A DNA stretch of 11,460 bases, from the UHGV virus genome UHGV-0079874, one strand, 5' to 3'. The position numbers were made by a program, and so were the translations under genes. This document shows positions 1 to 10,489 of this stretch, piece after piece. The notes under the pieces are model-generated. The model was not told the origin of the DNA, did not search any database, and saw nothing but the letters and a program-made list of their open reading frames with translations. This DNA comes from a virus. The first letter of the stretch is position 1. Every line of letters starts with the position of its first letter.

Positions 1-31
1 ATGGTGGTCAGTGCGTCCTGCTGATGGCTTA

Positions 32-60
32 AAATTACAAGAAAGATTGTATGTTGTAAA
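32..60 (-). promoter_or_regulatory. Candidate PL promoter (leftward): -35 TTTACA (60..55) and -10 TAATTT (37..32) with 17-bp spacer
   Basis: Read on the minus strand; hexamers abut the OL sites as expected for operator-controlled PL. An alternative -35 at 76..71 cannot be excluded. Confidence 0.35.
37..50. promoter_or_regulatory. OL operator site, 434-type 14-bp ACAA-N6-TTGT (ACAAGAAAGATTGT)
   Basis: Exact ACAA-N6-TTGT 14-mer, same family as the three OR sites at 1219-1277; lies beyond the 3' end of the cI-side operon where OL/PL is expected. Confidence 0.7.
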
Positions 61-73
61 CAAGAAATATTGT
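60..73. promoter_or_regulatory. OL operator site (ACAAGAAATATTGT)
   Basis: Second ACAA-N6-TTGT 14-mer, 9 bp from the first, matching the OR spacing. Confidence 0.7.
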
Positions 74-90
74 AAAAAGGGGCGTGAAAA

Positions 91-104
91 ACAAACTCCA
101 TTGT
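91..104. promoter_or_regulatory. OL operator site (ACAAACTCCATTGT)
   Basis: Third ACAA-N6-TTGT 14-mer; more divergent centre and wider spacing (17 bp) than the other two. Confidence 0.5.
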
Positions 105-153
105 TTTTAAATGAAAAATAGTTTATTTTTGGTTATCGAGATTGAGGTGGGGA

Positions 154-1506
<1,353 letters not shown>

Positions 1507-1514
1507 GACATTCC

Positions 1515-1546
1515 CGCTCTTACACATCCCAGCCCTGAAAAAGGGC
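1515..1546 (+). promoter_or_regulatory. nutR antitermination site: boxA CGCTCTTA (1515-1522) plus boxB hairpin GCCCTGAAAAAGGGC (1532-1546)
   Basis: boxA consensus and the lambda-type boxB stem-loop (GCCCT/AGGGC stem, GAAAA loop) immediately downstream of cro; implies a lambda-type N. Confidence 0.85.
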
Positions 1547-1622
1547 ATTACCAGAAACAAATCTCTATGGTTTTGCGTTTCTTTGCGAAGCCAACTCTAT
1601 CTAATCATTAAGGAAATTATCT

Positions 1623-1904
1623 ATGGGTACTATTGCAACTAAAAGCAAGAAAGCGGCTCGCATCGAGTCAGCCTTGCTGAACAAACTGGCACTGATGGGG
1701 CAGAAGACATTCGCTCGAGCAATGGGGGTTCCTGAATATCAGGTAAGCCGATGGAAGAATGGTTTCTTCTCGCAGGTAAGCATGATGCTTGCTGTTCTGG
1801 AATACGGAATCGAAGACGATGAAATGGCTGAATTGACTAAGCGGCTTGCCGATTACCTGACAAAAGAAAAAGCCCCGAAGAACGGCGAATTCTTCGAGGC
1901 CTAA
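1623..1904 (+). CDS. cII: CII transcriptional activator (93 aa)
   Basis: Core RIESALLNK...SRWK...[11 protein letters not shown]...DDEMA aligns with lambda CII; position after cro/nutR. Confidence 0.9.
1635..1648 (-). promoter_or_regulatory. PRE-type CII-binding site TTGC-N6-TTGC (read on minus strand) inside the 5' end of cII
   Basis: Plus strand reads GCAActaaaaGCAA, i.e. TTGCttttagTTGC on the minus strand, at the same relative position as lambda PRE, directing leftward transcription toward cI. Confidence 0.6.
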
Positions 1905-1938
1905 TGTAGAAAGACTGGATCAATCCACGGGAGTAATT

Positions 1939-2085
1939 ATGACAAAACAACTCAGTCCTTACCAGGACAAAATTCACAAACACATACTACGTGATCGCTT
2001 CCTGTCCAGCTTCAAGCAGCCTGGTCGATTCCGGGCTGAGTTGGAAAAAGTGAAGCTGATGCAGAAGGAGAAAGGTCATGAGTAA
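1939..2085 (+). CDS. Small hypothetical protein (48 aa) between cII and the replication initiator
   Basis: Own reading (below the track cutoff): ATG at 1939 preceded by GGGAG at 1928-1932 with 6-nt spacing; basic protein [21 protein letters not shown]...; its stop overlaps the start of the next gene. Confidence 0.5.
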
Positions 2086-2938
2086 TCTTGCAACCGTAAC
2101 ACATTTAAGGCCTTCACAACGGCCTGTGGAGCGTCGTGTGGCAGAAGTTGAAGATGGTTATACCCGTCTTGCAAATGCCCTGTATGAAGAGCTTATCGGC
2201 GCAGATTTAACGAAAAATCAGAGCAAGGTTGCCCACGCCATATGCCGTAAAACATACGGCTACGGTAAAAAGATGGATCGCATCTCTGATAGTCAGTTAG
2301 CTCAAATTACCAGGCTGCCAAGACAGAAGGTAAACAAGGCCAAGAATGAGCTTATCGCGATGAAGGTTATCCTTCGCGAAGGCCAGCAAATCGGGCCTAA
2401 CAAGAACATCGAGGAATGGCAAATAGAAGGGTGTCACTACTCTGGTGATAATGTCACTGCATTGGTGACAAAAAGTGTCACCAAAACGGTGACAGCGCTG
2501 TCACCAAAACAGGGACACACAAAAGAAACTATTACAAAAGAAAAAAGAAATAATAAAAACACTATGTCCGAAAGTGTTCGGACGGAGTGTGAAAAATCAC
2601 ATGACCGTCACGAAGAAACCGACAAGGCATTCGAGGAAATATTCTGGTGTGCAGGCATGCGGAAAGCCGGGAAGAAAAACGCAGCTTCGGCATTCAGAAC
2701 ACAGTTCAGGGAATGGCGTAAAACTACCAGGGGTACGGCAAGCGAGTTTGCCACGATGCTGGCAGAAGACATCGCATGCAGGAATGGTAAGCAGTTCGGA
2801 TTCGACAGGTTGTTACCATCGAGCTACCTGAACGGTCAACGCTGGAACGACGAGAAGCCAGAAACTATTCAACCACAATCCAAACCATCATCCGCAATCA
2901 CCGTATCGAAAACTGGCTACGTGTTTTTCGACAGGTGA
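2078..2938 (+). CDS. Replication initiator with lambda-O-like N-terminal domain; C-terminal domain unlike what I recall of lambda O
   Basis: N-terminal [61 protein letters not shown] is close to lambda O; iteron origin embedded in the linker; C-terminal about 100 aa not recognised. Confidence 0.85.
2428..2560. repeat. Candidate replication origin: 3-4 palindromic iterons (GGTGA-N-TGTCAC) at about 20-24 bp periodicity, then an A/T-rich tract
   Basis: GGTGATAATGTCAC (2444-2457), GGTGACAAAAAGTGTCACC (2464-2482), GGTGACAGCGCTGTCACC (2488-2505), partial copies at 2428-2440 and 2511-2520, then AAAAGAAACTATTACAAAAGAAAAAAGAAATAATAAAAAC (2521-2560); inside the initiator gene as in lambda ori. Confidence 0.7.
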
Positions 2939-2941
2939 ACC

Positions 2942-3049
2942 ATGAAATCAAAAATCAAATCGCTACTGGTCGCTGGTTATAACCACGGCTGGTTAAGTAT
3001 TTCGTTTGTCGATTTCTGGTTTAAAAATCTCAATCTGAGGGAATCATGA
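2942..3049 (+). CDS. Possible small ORF (35 aa) coupled to the primase-helicase gene
   Basis: Own reading: ATG at 2942 just after the initiator stop (AGGTGA upstream); TGA at 3047-3049 overlaps the helicase ATG at 3046 (ATGA). No recognisable family; could be spurious. Confidence 0.25.
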   Translation: MKSKIKSLLVAGYNHGWLSISFVDFWFKNLNLRES

Positions 3050-4926
3050 CGCCAAGTGAACTTAGCGACCTGCTTTGGGCGCAGGTTGACAGGGTGGCTC
3101 CGCACCTGTTGCCAAACGGCAAGAAAGAGGGGCATGAGTGGGTTGCCGGTAACGTCAATGGTGACAAGGGAAACAGCCTTAAGGTCAACCTTAGCGGCAA
3201 GAAAAAATGGGCTGATTTCGCTGAGGGAGACGGCGGTGACATACTTGATTTGTGGATGGCATGTCGTGGAATTAACCTGCATCAGGCTATGCAGGAAGCG
3301 AAAGCATTTCTCGGTATCAAGGATGACGATCACCATTTCGATGCCAAACGTGAGAAAAAATTCTCCAGACCTGATCGCAAGAAAATCGCCCGCTACGTTA
3401 CCAGAACAGAATCCCATCTTGAGTACCTGCAATCGCGTGGCATATCGCCAGAAGTCGTAAAGCGCTACGAGGTTGTCAGCGGCAAGGTGTGGAATGGAGA
3501 ACGAGAACTTGATGCACTGGTGCTTCCGTACAAACGCGATGGTGAGTTGTTGCAGGTCAAGCGAATCAGCACTGAGCGCCCGGACGGGAAGAAAGTCATT
3601 ATGGCAGAAGGTGATTGCGAACCTTGTCTGTTCGGATGGCAGGCTCTGGACGCTGGCGTGAGGGCGGTTGTACTTTGCGAAGGCGAAATTGATTGTATGA
3701 GCTATGCGCAATACGGCATCTCGGCGTTATCCGTGCCGTTTGGTGGAGGGAAAGGCGCTAAGCAACAGTGGATTGAGTTTGAGTACCACAACCTCGACAG
3801 GTTTGAGGAAATATTCATCTCGATGGACGTTGATGATGTTGGTCGTGAAGCCGCAAGGGAAATCGCAAGCCGACTCGGTGAACATCGTTGCCGTCTTGTT
3901 ACTCTGCCGTACAAAGACATCAACGAATGCCTGATGAACGGTGTTACCGAGGATGAAATCTGGCAGTACATCGGCACGGCATCCTACTTTGATCCTGAAG
4001 AACTCTACAGCGCGCGAGAGTTTTACCAGGACACTATCAACGCTTTCTACGGCAAGCAGCAGTATCTGTTTAATCCACCGTGGGAATCTCTGGCAGATAA
4101 ATTCCAGTTTCGTGAGGCCGAGTTGACGCTGGTCAATGGTGTGAACGGTCACGGAAAAACGGAGGTTGTCGGGCATATGGCACTTGAGGCAATGCGTCAG
4201 GGTGTGAAGACGTGCATCGCGTCACTTGAGCTGAAGCCTGGTATTCTCCTTAAGCGCCTTACCCGTCAGGCGACGTGCTGCAAGATGCCGCCAGTGCTGG
4301 AAATTGACTCTGCATTTAAATTTTATGACGAAAGACTTTGGGTGTTTGGCCTGACTGGAACGGCGAAAGCCGACAGGCTGATCGAAATATTCGACTACGC
4401 TCGCCGCCGATACGGCATCCAGTTATTCATCATCGACAGCCTGATGAAATGCGGCATAGGTGACGATGACTATAACGGGCAGAAAGCATTTGTTGACTCG
4501 ATTTGTGACTTCAAAAACAAAACAAACTCCCACGTCATTCTCGTTACTCACTCCAGAAAAGGAGATAGCGAAGAAAAACCAACCGGGAAAATGGACGTAA
4601 AAGGCTCTGGAGCGATAACAGACCTGACAGACAACCTTTTTATCATCTGGCGTAACAAGGCTCGCGAGAGAGCGTTACAGAGAGTTCAGAGTGGTGAAAA
4701 GATGTCAGAGAAGGACGAACAGCTACTGGCATCTCCGGCATCTGTTTTGATGCTTGAAAAACAACGTAACGGCGAAGGTTGGGAAGGTGGTGTCCCGTTG
4801 TTCCTTGACGAGCAATCGCACCAGTTCCTGCAACTTGAATCAGGATCGCCTTATAGCTACATCGCCAATATGCCGAAATCGGAATATGACGAGGCGTGGC
4901 GACAGGAAAACGTGACGGAGTATTAA
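3046..4926 (+). CDS. Bifunctional DNA primase-helicase (TOPRIM domain plus DnaB/T7-gp4-like SF4 helicase), 626 aa
   Basis: TOPRIM motifs VVLCEGEIDCMS and FISMDVDDVG; Walker A GVNGHGKT, Walker B LFIIDSLMK, and further helicase-like motifs (HVILVTHSRK, EKQRNGEG). No CHC2 zinc-finger Cys pattern seen. Occupies the lambda P slot. Confidence 0.9.
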   Translation: MTPSELSDLLWAQVDRVAPHLLPNGKKEGHEWVAGNVNGDKGNSLKVNLSGKKKWADFAEGDGGDILDLWMACRGINLHQAMQEAKAFLGIKDDDHHFDAKREKKFSRPDRKKIARYVTRTESHLEYLQSRGISPEVVKRYEVVSGKVWNGERELDALVLPYKRDGELLQVKRISTERPDGKKVIMAEGDCEPCLFGWQALDAGVRAVVLCEGEIDCMSYAQYGISALSVPFGGGKGAKQQWIEFEYHNLDRFEEIFISMDVDDVGREAAREIASRLGEHRCRLVTLPYKDINECLMNGVTEDEIWQYIGTASYFDPEELYSAREFYQDTINAFYGKQQYLFNPPWESLADKFQFREAELTLVNGVNGHGKTEVVGHMALEAMRQGVKTCIASLELKPGILLKRLTRQATCCKMPPVLEIDSAFKFYDERLWVFGLTGTAKADRLIEIFDYARRRYGIQLFIIDSLMKCGIGDDDYNGQKAFVDSICDFKNKTNSHVILVTHSRKGDSEEKPTGKMDVKGSGAITDLTDNLFIIWRNKARERALQRVQSGEKMSEKDEQLLASPASVLMLEKQRNGEGWEGGVPLFLDEQSHQFLQLESGSPYSYIANMPKSEYDEAWRQENVTEY

Positions 4927-5010
4927 ATGACCATCTACATCACTGAGCTTGTAACAGGCCTGCTGGTAATCGCAGGCCTTTTTATTTGGGAGAGAGTAAA
5001 TCGTGGCTGA
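4927..5010 (+). CDS. Small hydrophobic peptide (27 aa), predicted single transmembrane helix
   Basis: Own reading: ATG directly after the helicase TAA (TAAATG), GGAG 6 nt upstream; MTIYITELVTGLLVIAGLFIWERVNRG. Confidence 0.45.
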   Translation: MTIYITELVTGLLVIAGLFIWERVNRG

Positions 5011-5209
5011 GTTAATTTTCTCTGCATTGAGGATTCTCGGTGCTATGTGGATGGTGGCGACGTTCATTGTTGTTGCCAGCAGTTTTGTCCGGTTGGTAGG
5101 CGAAGGTAAAGACCTGGTGGGTGTGCTTTTCGGTAGCATTTTCCTGTGGGTGATTATCGGTGTTATGCCTGTTGTCGTAGCAAAAGTGGCGTGGCGTTTT
5201 GTGAGTTGA
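5003..5209 (+). CDS. Small membrane protein (68 aa, two predicted TM segments)
   Basis: GTG start with GGGAGAG 8 nt upstream; overlaps the previous small ORF by 8 nt; very hydrophobic. Antisense and alternate-frame ORFs here look like artefacts. Confidence 0.55.
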   Translation: MAELIFSALRILGAMWMVATFIVVASSFVRLVGEGKDLVGVLFGSIFLWVIIGVMPVVVAKVAWRFVS

Positions 5210-5216
5210 GGTAACG

Positions 5217-5663
5217 ATGAAGCAAATATACATGCTTCGCAACGAAGCAATCAGAAACAACGCCATAGACGCAATACTCTCACTTCCGATCGACGACAAG
5301 TCACCTCACGAAGTCCACGTTAGAGAACCCAAACGCAGCAAAGAGCAGAATGACCGTATGTGGCCGATGCTGAACGATGTTTCGCGTCAGGTGCTATGGC
5401 ATGGTCAACGGCTGGCGCCGGAAGACTGGAAAGACCTGTTCACTGCCCTGTGGCTTAAGACCAAAAAACTGGAGCAACGAAGTGTGCCTGGTATCGACGG
5501 TGGCGTTGTCATGCTTGGCGTGCGTACCAGCAAAATGCGAAAGGCCAGCATGACTGAGCTTATCGAAATCATGTTCTGGTTCGGCTCAGAGCGCAACGTG
5601 CGGTGGAGTGATGACTCCCGGCGAGAGTATGAATGGTCACAACGAAAAGGGAAGGCTGCATGA
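5217..5663 (+). CDS. ninB: NinB (Orf-family recombination mediator)
   Basis: Alignable along its length with lambda NinB ([33 protein letters not shown]-terminus); SD GAGG upstream. Confidence 0.9.
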   Translation: MKQIYMLRNEAIRNNAIDAILSLPIDDKSPHEVHVREPKRSKEQNDRMWPMLNDVSRQVLWHGQRLAPEDWKDLFTALWLKTKKLEQRSVPGIDGGVVMLGVRTSKMRKASMTELIEIMFWFGSERNVRWSDDSRREYEWSQRKGKAA

Positions 5664-6187
5664 CTATCAAATCAAATACGCCAGCACACGACAAGGACTG
5701 CTGGCAAACGCCGCTTTGGCTTTTTGATGCACTGGATATTGAGTTTGGATTCTGGCTGGATTCGGCAGCGAGCGACAAAAATGCTCTGTGCGCTCACTGG
5801 CTAACTGAGGCCGACGACGCGCTCAATTCTGAGTGGGTAAGCCACGGTGCAATCTGGAATAACCCACCGTACAGCAATATCAGGCCGTGGGTGGAAAAAG
5901 CCGCTGAGCAGTGCATACAACAGCGACAGACGATAGTGATGCTTGTGCCAGAGGATATGTCTGTCGGATGGTTCAGCAAGGCTCTGGAGAGTGTTGACGA
6001 AGTTCGCATCATTACTGATGGACGGATTAATTTTATCGAACCATCGACAGGGCTGGAGAAGAAGGGAAACAGCAAAGGTTCCATGCTGCTGATTTGGCGA
6101 CCGTTCATCAGTCCTCGACGGATGTTTACTACCGTATCCAAAGCGGCATTGATGGCGATCGGGCAGGGCGTCAGGAGGGCGGCATGA
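5660..6187 (+). CDS. Phage Dam-like DNA N6-adenine methyltransferase
   Basis: NPPY catalytic motif (IWNNPPYSN) and N-terminal W-x-TP-x-W-L-F-D signature; ATG overlaps the ninB stop (ATGA). Sits where lambda has ninC/ninD. Confidence 0.8.
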
Positions 6188-9271: not shown

Positions 9272-9595
9272 ATGAAGATGCCAGAAAAACATGACCTGTT
9301 AGCCGCCATTCTCGCGGCAAAGGAACAAGGCATCGGGGCAATCCTTGCGTTTGCAATGGCGTACCTTCGCGGCAGATATAATGGCGGTGCGTTTACAAAA
9401 ACAGTAATCGACGCAACGATGTGCGCCATTATCGCCTGGTTCATTCGTGACCTTCTCGACTTCGCCGGACTAAGTAGCAATCTCGCTTATATAACGAGCG
9501 TGTTCATCGGCTACATCGGTACTGACTCGATTGGTTCGCTTATCAAACGCTTCGCTGCTAAAAAAGCCGGAGTAGAAGATGGTGGAAATCAATAA
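9272..9595 (+). CDS. S: Holin S (S107/S105 dual-start, lambda type)
   Basis: [34 protein letters not shown]... matches lambda S; Met1-Lys2-Met3 dual-start motif present. Confidence 0.97.
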
Positions 9596-10055
9596 TCAAC
9601 GTAAGGCGTTCCTCGATATGCTGGCATGGTCAGAGGGAACTGATAACGGACGGCAGAAAACCAGAAATCATGGTTATGACGTCATTGTAGGAGGAGAGCT
9701 ATTCACTGATTACTCCGATCACCCTCGCAAACTTGTCACGCTAAACCCCAAACTCAAATCAACAGCCGCCGGACGCTACCAGCTTCTTTCCCGTTGGTGG
9801 GATGCCTACCGCAAGCAGCTTGGCCTGAAAGACTTCTCTCCCAAAAGCCAGGACGCTGTGGCATTGCAGCAGATTAAGGAGCGTGGCGCTTTACCGATGA
9901 TTGATCGCGGTGATATTCGTCAGGCAATCGACCGTTGCAGCAATATCTGGGCTTCACTGCCGGGCGCTGGTTATGGTCAGTTCGAGCATAAGGCTGACAA
10001 CCTGATTGCAAAATTCAAAGAAGCTGGCGGAACGGTCAGAGAGATTGAGGCATGA
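9579..10055 (+). CDS. R: Endolysin R (lytic transglycosylase, lambda type)
   Basis: 158 aa, matches lambda R along its length; overlaps the 3' end of S as in lambda. Confidence 0.97.
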
Positions 10056-10489
10056 GCAGAGTAACCGCGATTATCTCCGCTCTGGTTATCTGCATCATCG
10101 TTTGCCTGTCATGGGCTGTTAATCATTACCGTGATAACGCCATCGCCTATAAAGAGCAGCGCGACAAAGCCACATCCATCATCGCTGATATGCAGAAGCG
10201 TCAACGTGATGTAGCAGAACTTGACGCCAGATACACAAAGGAGCTTGCTGATGCTAACGCGACTATCGAAAGTCTCCGCGCTGATGTTTCTGCTGGTCGT
10301 AAGCGCCTGCAAGTCGCCGCCACCTGTGCAAAGTCAACGACCGGAGCCAGCGGCATGGGCGATGGAGAAAGCTCAGGACTTACAGCAGATGCTGAACTCA
10401 ATTATTACCGTCTCCGAAGTGGAATCGACAGGATAACCGCGCAGGTTAACTACCTGCAGGAGTACATCAGGACGCAATGCCTGAAATAA
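10052..10489 (+). CDS. Rz: Spanin inner-membrane subunit Rz (i-spanin)
   Basis: N-terminal [33 protein letters not shown] matches lambda Rz; the rest is a diverged coiled-coil periplasmic domain; ATGA overlap with R. Confidence 0.9.
10251..10436 (+). CDS. Rz1: Spanin outer-membrane lipoprotein subunit Rz1 (o-spanin), embedded in the +1 frame of Rz
   Basis: ATG at 10251 with AAAGGAG 7 nt upstream; lipoprotein signal with lipobox VSAC then proline-rich [13 protein letters not shown]; entirely inside Rz. The track ORF from 10221 is a TTG extension. Confidence 0.8.

Follow-up and report, generated by a model that had tools for sequence, protein, structure and literature searches.

What is encoded by two very short reading frames with hydrophobic translations that directly follow the replication gene of a lambda-like virus genome? 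The frames, of 27 and 68 codons (here ORF27 and ORF68), lie in an 11,460-nt stretch of UHGV virus genome UHGV-0079874, which was analysed as a whole and is referred to as the window. A first-pass annotation, made from the sequence alone, had described them as two small membrane proteins at the position of lambda ren and ninA, possibly with an exclusion, toxin-like or host membrane-modulating role. Both frames were found as described; they overlap by 8 nt (Table 1). Neither had been recognisable at that stage, but they can now be assigned to two catalogued phage families, ORF27 to phrog_5907 and ORF68 to phrog_1165. We consider it probable (about 0.8) that the region consists of two independent modules of the lambdoid pR operon, i.e. 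a combined tR2 terminator and ninA linker, and an accessory cassette formed by ORF68.

According to the gene map, the window as a whole represents the early-right arm of a lambdoid prophage. The gene order is cI-type repressor, cro-like gene, cII, O, primase-helicase, ORF27, ORF68, followed by ninB, dam, ninE, ninG, ninH, a phosphatase gene and Q, and finally by a lambda-S-type holin gene, an ORF at the endolysin position (without Pfam match), Rz and Rha. The primase-helicase has 626 residues, ends with a TAA stop codon and is called 'toprim domain-containing protein' in E. coli prophage annotation. Upstream, a boxA and boxB pair was identified in the sequence, which we take to be identical to that of lambda nutR. 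By analogy, this nutR would be the upstream site that loads N for read-through of tR2 by RNA polymerase; since boxA and boxB are of the lambda type, the N-dependent read-through logic known from established lambda biology should apply. A promoter scan identified no promoter-like site on either strand within positions 4500–5700, and an Rfam scan of the window matched no family.

The lambda-type nutR adjoins an immunity region of the Sf6/Sf101 type (positions 1–3100 of the window match phage Sf101 at 99.8%), and the two together form a mosaic in which the N-utilisation site is that of lambda and the repressor module is not. In addition, an ORF of 158 residues at 154–630 on the minus strand adjoins the repressor gene, at the position of the lambda rexAB slot, and is possibly an accessory gene expressed in the lysogen; it had no Pfam or PADLOC match.

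Table 1. Features of the pR operon in the window that bear on ORF27 and ORF68
Feature	Position	Strand	Evidence or remark
nutR	1515..1546	+	boxA CGCTCTTA (1515-1522), boxB GCCCTGAAAAAGGGC (1532-1546); from the sequence
Primase-helicase replication gene	3046..4926	+	Pfam Toprim_2 E=3e-12, AAA_25, DnaB_C (DnaB-like ATPase)
GGAG Shine-Dalgarno motif of ninA	4917..4920	+	6 nt 5' of ATG, within the helicase coding sequence
ninA mini-ORF (ORF27), 27 aa	4927..5010	+	MTIYITELVTGLLVIAGLFIWERVNRG; phrog_5907 E=1.2e-17; lambdoid 'boundary sequence' block
Predicted tR2-type intrinsic terminator	4956..4987	+	top match of the terminator scan; folds
Shine-Dalgarno region GGGAGAGAG for the gene 3' of tR2	4988..4996	+	conserved 3' end of the tR2 block
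ORF68, gene for a 68-aa two-helix membrane protein	5003..5209	+	GTG start; phrog_1165 E=6.5e-36, residues 1-68 of 68
ninB (Orf recombination mediator), next nin-region gene	5217..5663	+	Pfam NinB E=1.1e-48

The ninA reading frame and the terminator within it

On every feature that could be tested here ORF27 matches ninA/tR2, and it is ninA, the long-known mini-reading-frame of lambda-like phages that carries the tR2 terminator inside (Kroger & Hobom 1982, as cited in PMC4824070). The phrog_5907 profile match spans residues 1–26 of the 27, and the first 70 nt are identical to lambda (NC_001416) at 66 positions (94%). Both flanks of this 70-nt block are unrelated, being ren and ninB in lambda, and the helicase gene and ORF68 in the window. 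The placement in the ren/ninA slot was therefore correct as to position, but the frame does not merely sit where lambda carries ninA. Its DNA is among the short blocks that lambdoid phages share most widely: the ninA block was found with tblastn in 398 phage records, including lambda, P22-like phages, Sf6 and Stx phages, and the 70-nt block with megablast in 1788 of 5426 complete E. coli genomes. In curated records, gene 45 of Sf6 (AF547987) is described as 'similar to phage 21 NinA' and as 'bsq6 boundary sequence', with an inner 'terminator, homology to phage lambda tR2', and in HK620 (AF335538) a 'ninA' is annotated with 'terminator tR2' inside; the HK75 and phage L records annotate the terminator as well.

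The sequence of positions 4956–4987 is that of a lambda tR2-type terminator, predicted to stop transcripts. It has a stem of 8 bp, AGGCCTGC (4956–4963) pairing with GCAGGCCT (4972–4979), of which 6 are GC pairs, a loop of 8 nt, and a T-run TTTTATTT (4980–4987) directly 3' of the stem, and folding gave a minimum free energy of -16 to -17 kcal/mol for the hairpin. Hairpin and T-run are identical to those of lambda, for which a termination efficiency of about 90% has been measured (PMC4824070). The gene map also places it as tR2 is placed in lambda, i.e. in the pR operon downstream of nutR, behind the replication genes and ahead of the nin genes and Q. The first-pass annotation read ORF27 as a membrane peptide only and missed this terminator, although, according to the annotations cited and to the literature on lambda (PMC4824070), the main known function of the block is at the RNA level.

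Further similarities with lambda are the ATG codon 30 nt 5' of the hairpin and a G-rich Shine-Dalgarno region at the matching place. The four base differences in the 70 nt include a change from GGGGGAGAG to GGGAGAGAG in the latter, by which the peptide changes from WGR to WER; GGGGGAGAG is found in most phages, and the region is kept before at least eight different downstream genes. The upstream partner is ren in lambda and the primase-helicase gene in the window. The peptide ends in ...RGKS (26 residues) in lambda and in ...RVNRG (27 residues) in the window, because the downstream partner here is ORF68 instead of ninB.

Three observations on terminator-like sequences stand apart from this assignment. 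First, the terminator scan gave five sites in total, compared to 0.9 expected in shuffled sequence; those at 5052–5078 on the plus strand, inside ORF68, and at 5249–5233 on the minus strand, where ninB begins, are weak and could have arisen by chance. Secondly, in a scan of species-representative genomes, exact copies of the lambda tR2 hairpin were present in assemblies of Pseudomonas, Shewanella, Oceanobacillus, Bradyrhizobium, Nocardioides and others (loci L135–L154), several of them on contigs of low coverage and of about 48.4–48.5 kb. These hits most likely represent contamination of public genomes with phage lambda control DNA, and the scan, consisting mostly of such contamination, is uninformative on the taxonomic spread of tR2. 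Finally, nearly every nin gene beyond ninB is flagged as frameshifted in E. coli KSC207 (NZ_CP019558, locus L001), a pattern that points to assembly error and not to decay, so that single-base variants of the tR2 stem in this genome are untrustworthy.

Terminator, linker or membrane peptide

Several lines of evidence suggest that ninA is probably translated. As the first-pass annotation had noted, ORF27 begins directly behind the helicase stop codon (TAAATG at 4924–4929) and is preceded by a GGAG motif, its TGA stop codon (5008–5010) overlaps the start of ORF68, whose GTG lies within the last ninA codons, and ORF68 has a Shine-Dalgarno sequence of its own. This tight coupling of stop and start codons, with the accompanying Shine-Dalgarno motifs, is retained across unrelated flanking genes. 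Upstream of ninA, a Shine-Dalgarno motif at a spacing of 4–10 nt was found in six of eight non-homologous contexts (about 5/7 if two possibly related contexts are merged), compared to a background of 4.8% (P=3e-7). Downstream, the ninA stop codon overlaps or abuts the next start codon in most of 12 different modules. The canonical ATG is present 30 nt 5' of the hairpin in 222 of 235 loci (94%). For lambda, Li et al. found in a reporter study with the native sequence that the NinA initiation site is 'not weak' (PMC4824070), and ribosome profiling of lambda (Liu et al. 2013, cited in a passage of PMC4824070) also bears on ninA translation.

The geometry of these signals relative to the hairpin makes it most likely that ninA acts as a coupling linker across the terminator. 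Its start is tied to the upstream stop codon and its own stop codon overlaps the downstream start, which is best read as a translated linker. In lambda, tR2 is located 30 bp past the ninA AUG and 16 bp before the ninA stop codon, translation of ninA reduces termination by just ~10%, and termination is at its maximum (~90%) once over 27 nt separate the upstream stop codon from the terminator (PMC4824070). The corresponding distance in the window, from the helicase stop codon to the terminator, is 29 nt.

To see whether the hairpin or the peptide is maintained by selection, we compared some 250 related IMG/VR loci, for which either the 5' portion of the block or the hairpin served as anchor. Behind one and the same 5' sequence, ATGACCATCTACATCACTGAGCTAATAACA, three different hairpins were found, i.e. 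those of the lambda, HK97/HK544 and L084 types, each with a T-run and each folding. The HK97/HK544-type hairpin consists of GGGCTATT and AGTAGCCC, and the L084 type differs from it by a change of a T-A to a C-G pair. The occurrence of three hairpin sequences at a single spot, all with a T-run, indicates that the terminator is the conserved function. The core of the peptide changes along with the hairpin allele, from GLLVIAGLFIW to GAIYTVALFYW and GATYTVAFLF.

The hydropathy profile of ORF27 contains a single hydrophobic stretch. In an alternative reading, NinA functions as a micro-peptide that spans the membrane once (an exclusion factor, toxin or membrane modulator), and the terminator merely shares its DNA. 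This would agree with the retention of the ATG and of Shine-Dalgarno motifs in unrelated upstream genes, and with the initiation observed in the lambda reporter. Moreover, the common polymorphisms of codons 2–10 are synonymous or exchange Ile and Val. In the hairpin-anchored samples, these codons showed roughly 7–8 synonymous compared to about 10 conservative non-synonymous variants (rough dN/dS 0.4), and for two of the three hairpin alleles (lambda and HK97) hydropathy profiles show the ninA frame to be the hydrophobic frame. Considering this weak coding signal and the choice of frame, a role of the peptide is retained as an unlikely, though not negligible, explanation. Against it stands the fact that the hydrophobic core is swapped wholesale with the hairpin allele, while a change in the hairpin loop replaces Leu by Gln in six loci. 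Differences in T-run length shift the frame (L058; HF4s compared to HK544), and the frame is broken with the hairpin kept by a 1-nt deletion in codon 2 (five loci), by nonsense mutations (L205 and L113), and by an HNH gene that splits ninA in HK022-type phages. The C-terminus varies from 20 to 32 residues in total peptide length and is set wholly by the downstream module. Furthermore, lambda transcripts terminated at tR2 lack the ninA stop codon (PMC4824070), and in the viable lambda nin5 the nin region including ninA is deleted (PMC3349717). The toxin, exclusion or membrane-modulator role that had been suggested for ORF27 is thus less likely than that of a translated linker with an embedded terminator.

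It is extremely unlikely that the block is a recombination joint alone, with no other role and with its similarity due to frequent exchange: the 'bsq6 boundary sequence' annotation of Sf6 and the sharp beginning and end of homology at gene junctions, with at least seven upstream and at least 12 downstream partners, do point to a joint, but lambda tR2 has been shown experimentally to be a strong terminator (PMC4824070), the other hairpin alleles retain hairpin and U-tract, and the two roles are compatible and not exclusive.

The HNH gene deserves mention as an observation of its own. It encodes a homing endonuclease of 203 residues with HNH_3 and AP2 domains, is AT-rich, and in L020 (6334–7055) interrupts the block precisely after ninA codon 9 and before the tR2 hairpin, with its stop codon 1 nt 5' of the hairpin and leaving a chimeric 'ninA' of 34 residues. 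The same insertion was found in HK022 (L009), in L101, L132, L159 and L160, and in 19 phage records. From its exact position, the highly conserved block looks like a homing site. The 34-residue variant was also considered as a hairpin-free NinA protein, and was rejected as such; its tail is 100% identical in 19 of 19 records and always occurs together with the HNH gene, and hence holds no independent information.

The 68-residue membrane protein

ORF68 is a genuine, conserved gene and an ordinary member of a catalogued, uncharacterised phage family. Homologues with 41–100% identity were found in 107 phage records, all with a constant length of 68 residues. The allele of the window is shared with HK022, HK75, HK630 and Stx2 phage 86, and is present in 448 complete E. 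coli genomes (~8%), in some of them with 100% DNA identity; other allele groups are the HK620 type (~57% identity) and the Salmonella SPN9CC type (41%, with an ATG at the homologous start). The small hypothetical proteins of phrog_1165 (HK022, HK75, HK620, Stx2 phage 86 orf70 and Salmonella SPN9CC_0027) match over the full length and are also of 68 residues. In E. coli and Salmonella phages, their genes lie directly behind tR2 and overlap the ninA stop codon, as in the window, and no difference of note from ORF68 was seen. PGAP names the protein hypothetical. An exhaustive phmmer search against 1.84 billion representatives gave 17 matches, all to small hypothetical proteins, including relatives of 63–66 residues at 30–39% identity. 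The Nei-Gojobori dN/dS ratio for divergent pairs is 0.29–0.37 in frame, whereas pS and pN are about equal in the two other frames.

The two transmembrane segments that had been claimed for ORF68 are supported by the hydropathy profile and by an AlphaFold model (pLDDT 92.6), and the dN/dS ratio of ~0.3 confirms that the frame encodes a protein. The model is a helical hairpin with helices at residues 2–33 and 38–67, in agreement with the hydropathy windows. Invariant residues in the alignment are W16, W49, G53, P56, K61 and W64; the second helix bears a conserved G-x-x-P, and G35 and D37 are conserved as well. The Lys or Arg residues that are conserved at positions 10 and 61, together with the turn, suggest that both termini face the cytoplasm (N-in/C-in) and that the short G-x-D turn is periplasmic.

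A few prophages contain pseudogene copies, with an in-frame stop codon in L029 and a deletion in L070, which implies that ORF68 is dispensable. Frame-disrupting variation, on which the first-pass annotation had made both frames depend, occurs for ORF27 in a minority of lineages, and does not argue against ORF68 as a gene. More distant homologues are found in arrays of small genes after replication genes, with no tR2 in front. This indicates that the two modules are independent, and that ORF68 is a cassette of its own which was set behind tR2 by mosaic exchange. The possibility that ORF27 and ORF68 are a single gene split by a frameshift was rejected, as ORF68 homologues occur without ninA (HK022 and distant relatives); no fusion of the two was found among the relatives examined.

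In two of the distant relatives (L284 2501–2701 and L282 2501–2692), small genes of the phiTE_015 family (PF26207) are repeated neighbours in early-region arrays, and these combinations may represent a recurring accessory-gene neighbourhood. A different downstream cassette, of 108 residues with a hydrophobic N-terminus, was observed in L005 (1277–1603, Sf6 gene 46), L025, L093 and L117. It opens with GTGGCTGA, as ORF68 does, from which it appears that the recombination joint extends over the opening codons of the gene that follows.

As to function, ORF68 had no match in Pfam, NCBIfam or PADLOC at E<=1, Foldseek searches against PDB and BFVD gave nothing informative, and a literature search found no paper on ORF68. 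We tentatively propose, with low confidence, that ORF68 is embedded in the membrane and, as a small modulator, acts during lytic growth on a protein or process of the host inner membrane. Since no promoter-like site precedes it, production of ORF68 is expected to depend on transcription past tR2.

Two other roles, in exclusion and in the timing of lysis, are less likely. In the first, ORF68 would work in the manner of T4 Imm or HK97 gp15, as a protein of superinfection exclusion or injection blocking that bars the entry of a second phage's DNA. ORF68 is indeed a small two-helix hairpin of the inner membrane and an early product, and its accessory slot takes anti-restriction genes (Lar, Dam) in relatives. 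Its likeness to T4 Imm and HK97 gp15 is, however, in kind only, as small early phage proteins of transmembrane helices; no sequence, HMM or profile similarity to these or any other exclusion protein was detected. Moreover, ORF68 is not positioned for expression from the prophage: lying behind tR2 in the repressed pR operon, without a promoter-like site, it should not be made in the lysogen, where exclusion usually acts. This role is thus decidedly improbable.

The second role, in which ORF68 would damage the membrane as a toxin or set the timing of lysis like a holin or antiholin, is suggested by the length of 68 residues with two transmembrane helices, resembling class II holins, and by the conserved G-x-x-P in the second helix. 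It is nevertheless very unlikely. The window has its own lysis cassette at 9272–10489, beginning with the lambda-S-type holin gene (9272–9595), followed by the ORF at the endolysin position and Rz, and expression of ORF68 would fall hours-equivalent ahead of the late genes. No holin HMM of Pfam was matched, the C-terminus lacks a charged tail (just KVAWRFVS) and there is no dual start, so that neither profile, nor place relative to the lysis cassette, nor tail is that of a class II holin or pinholin. Type I toxins of the Hok/TisB kind, peptides with one transmembrane segment, a promoter of their own and an antisense RNA, also differ, as ORF68 has two helices and the promoter scan revealed no antisense promoter such as these toxins have.

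There is some outside chance, rated jointly for two readings, that ORF68 is a new kind of inner-membrane effector or that the ninA/tR2 block is truly dual-coded. As an effector, ORF68 would serve in anti-defence or host takeover and would bind a specific host membrane protein via its face of invariant Trp residues, G-x-x-P and Lys. With dual coding, RNA hairpin and hydrophobic peptide would both be under selection, and the choice between termination and read-through would also set whether a non-stop, tmRNA-tagged fragment or a complete membrane micro-peptide is made.

Proposed model and meaning

We propose the following model for the two modules. At tR2, with its hairpin at 4956–4979 and the U-tract behind it, transcription from pR would be stopped unless N had modified it at nutR, and this termination would gate the nin genes and Q. 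The ninA frame, with tR2 embedded, would have its start coupled to the stop codon of any upstream gene, here that of the primase-helicase, and its stop codon overlapping the start of any downstream gene, here ORF68. On read-through transcripts, ninA may thereby hand ribosomes across tR2, so that the nin region remains an unbroken 'chain of interlinked genes'. It would also set the upstream stop codon ~30 nt 5' of the hairpin, presumably far enough that a terminating ribosome does not mask it. The hydrophobic appearance of the NinA peptide would then reflect the codons of stem and U-tract. Probably the same block is also a site (boundary sequence) at which mosaic modules are joined by recombination. 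The ORF68 cassette would supply a helical hairpin of the inner membrane, as a delayed-early product made only after read-through of tR2. The model builds on the sequence identity, conservation, coding signal and fold presented above and, for lambda, on published results (PMC4824070) for tR2 as a terminator and for the ninA AUG as an initiation site; from these we infer the coupling role of ninA, as well as topology and function of ORF68.

Both reading frames are thus already known, and little is new in them as such. They do hold a caution for scans that work from sequence only, since a GC-rich hairpin with a U-tract, when read as codons, mimics a transmembrane helix; here, what seemed a 'tiny TM ORF' behind a replication gene corresponds to tR2, the classic gate of delayed-early transcription in lambda. 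The interest that remains lies in the role of the widespread 68-residue protein, and in the consequence of the dual use of the tR2 block as a hairpin and a translated frame.
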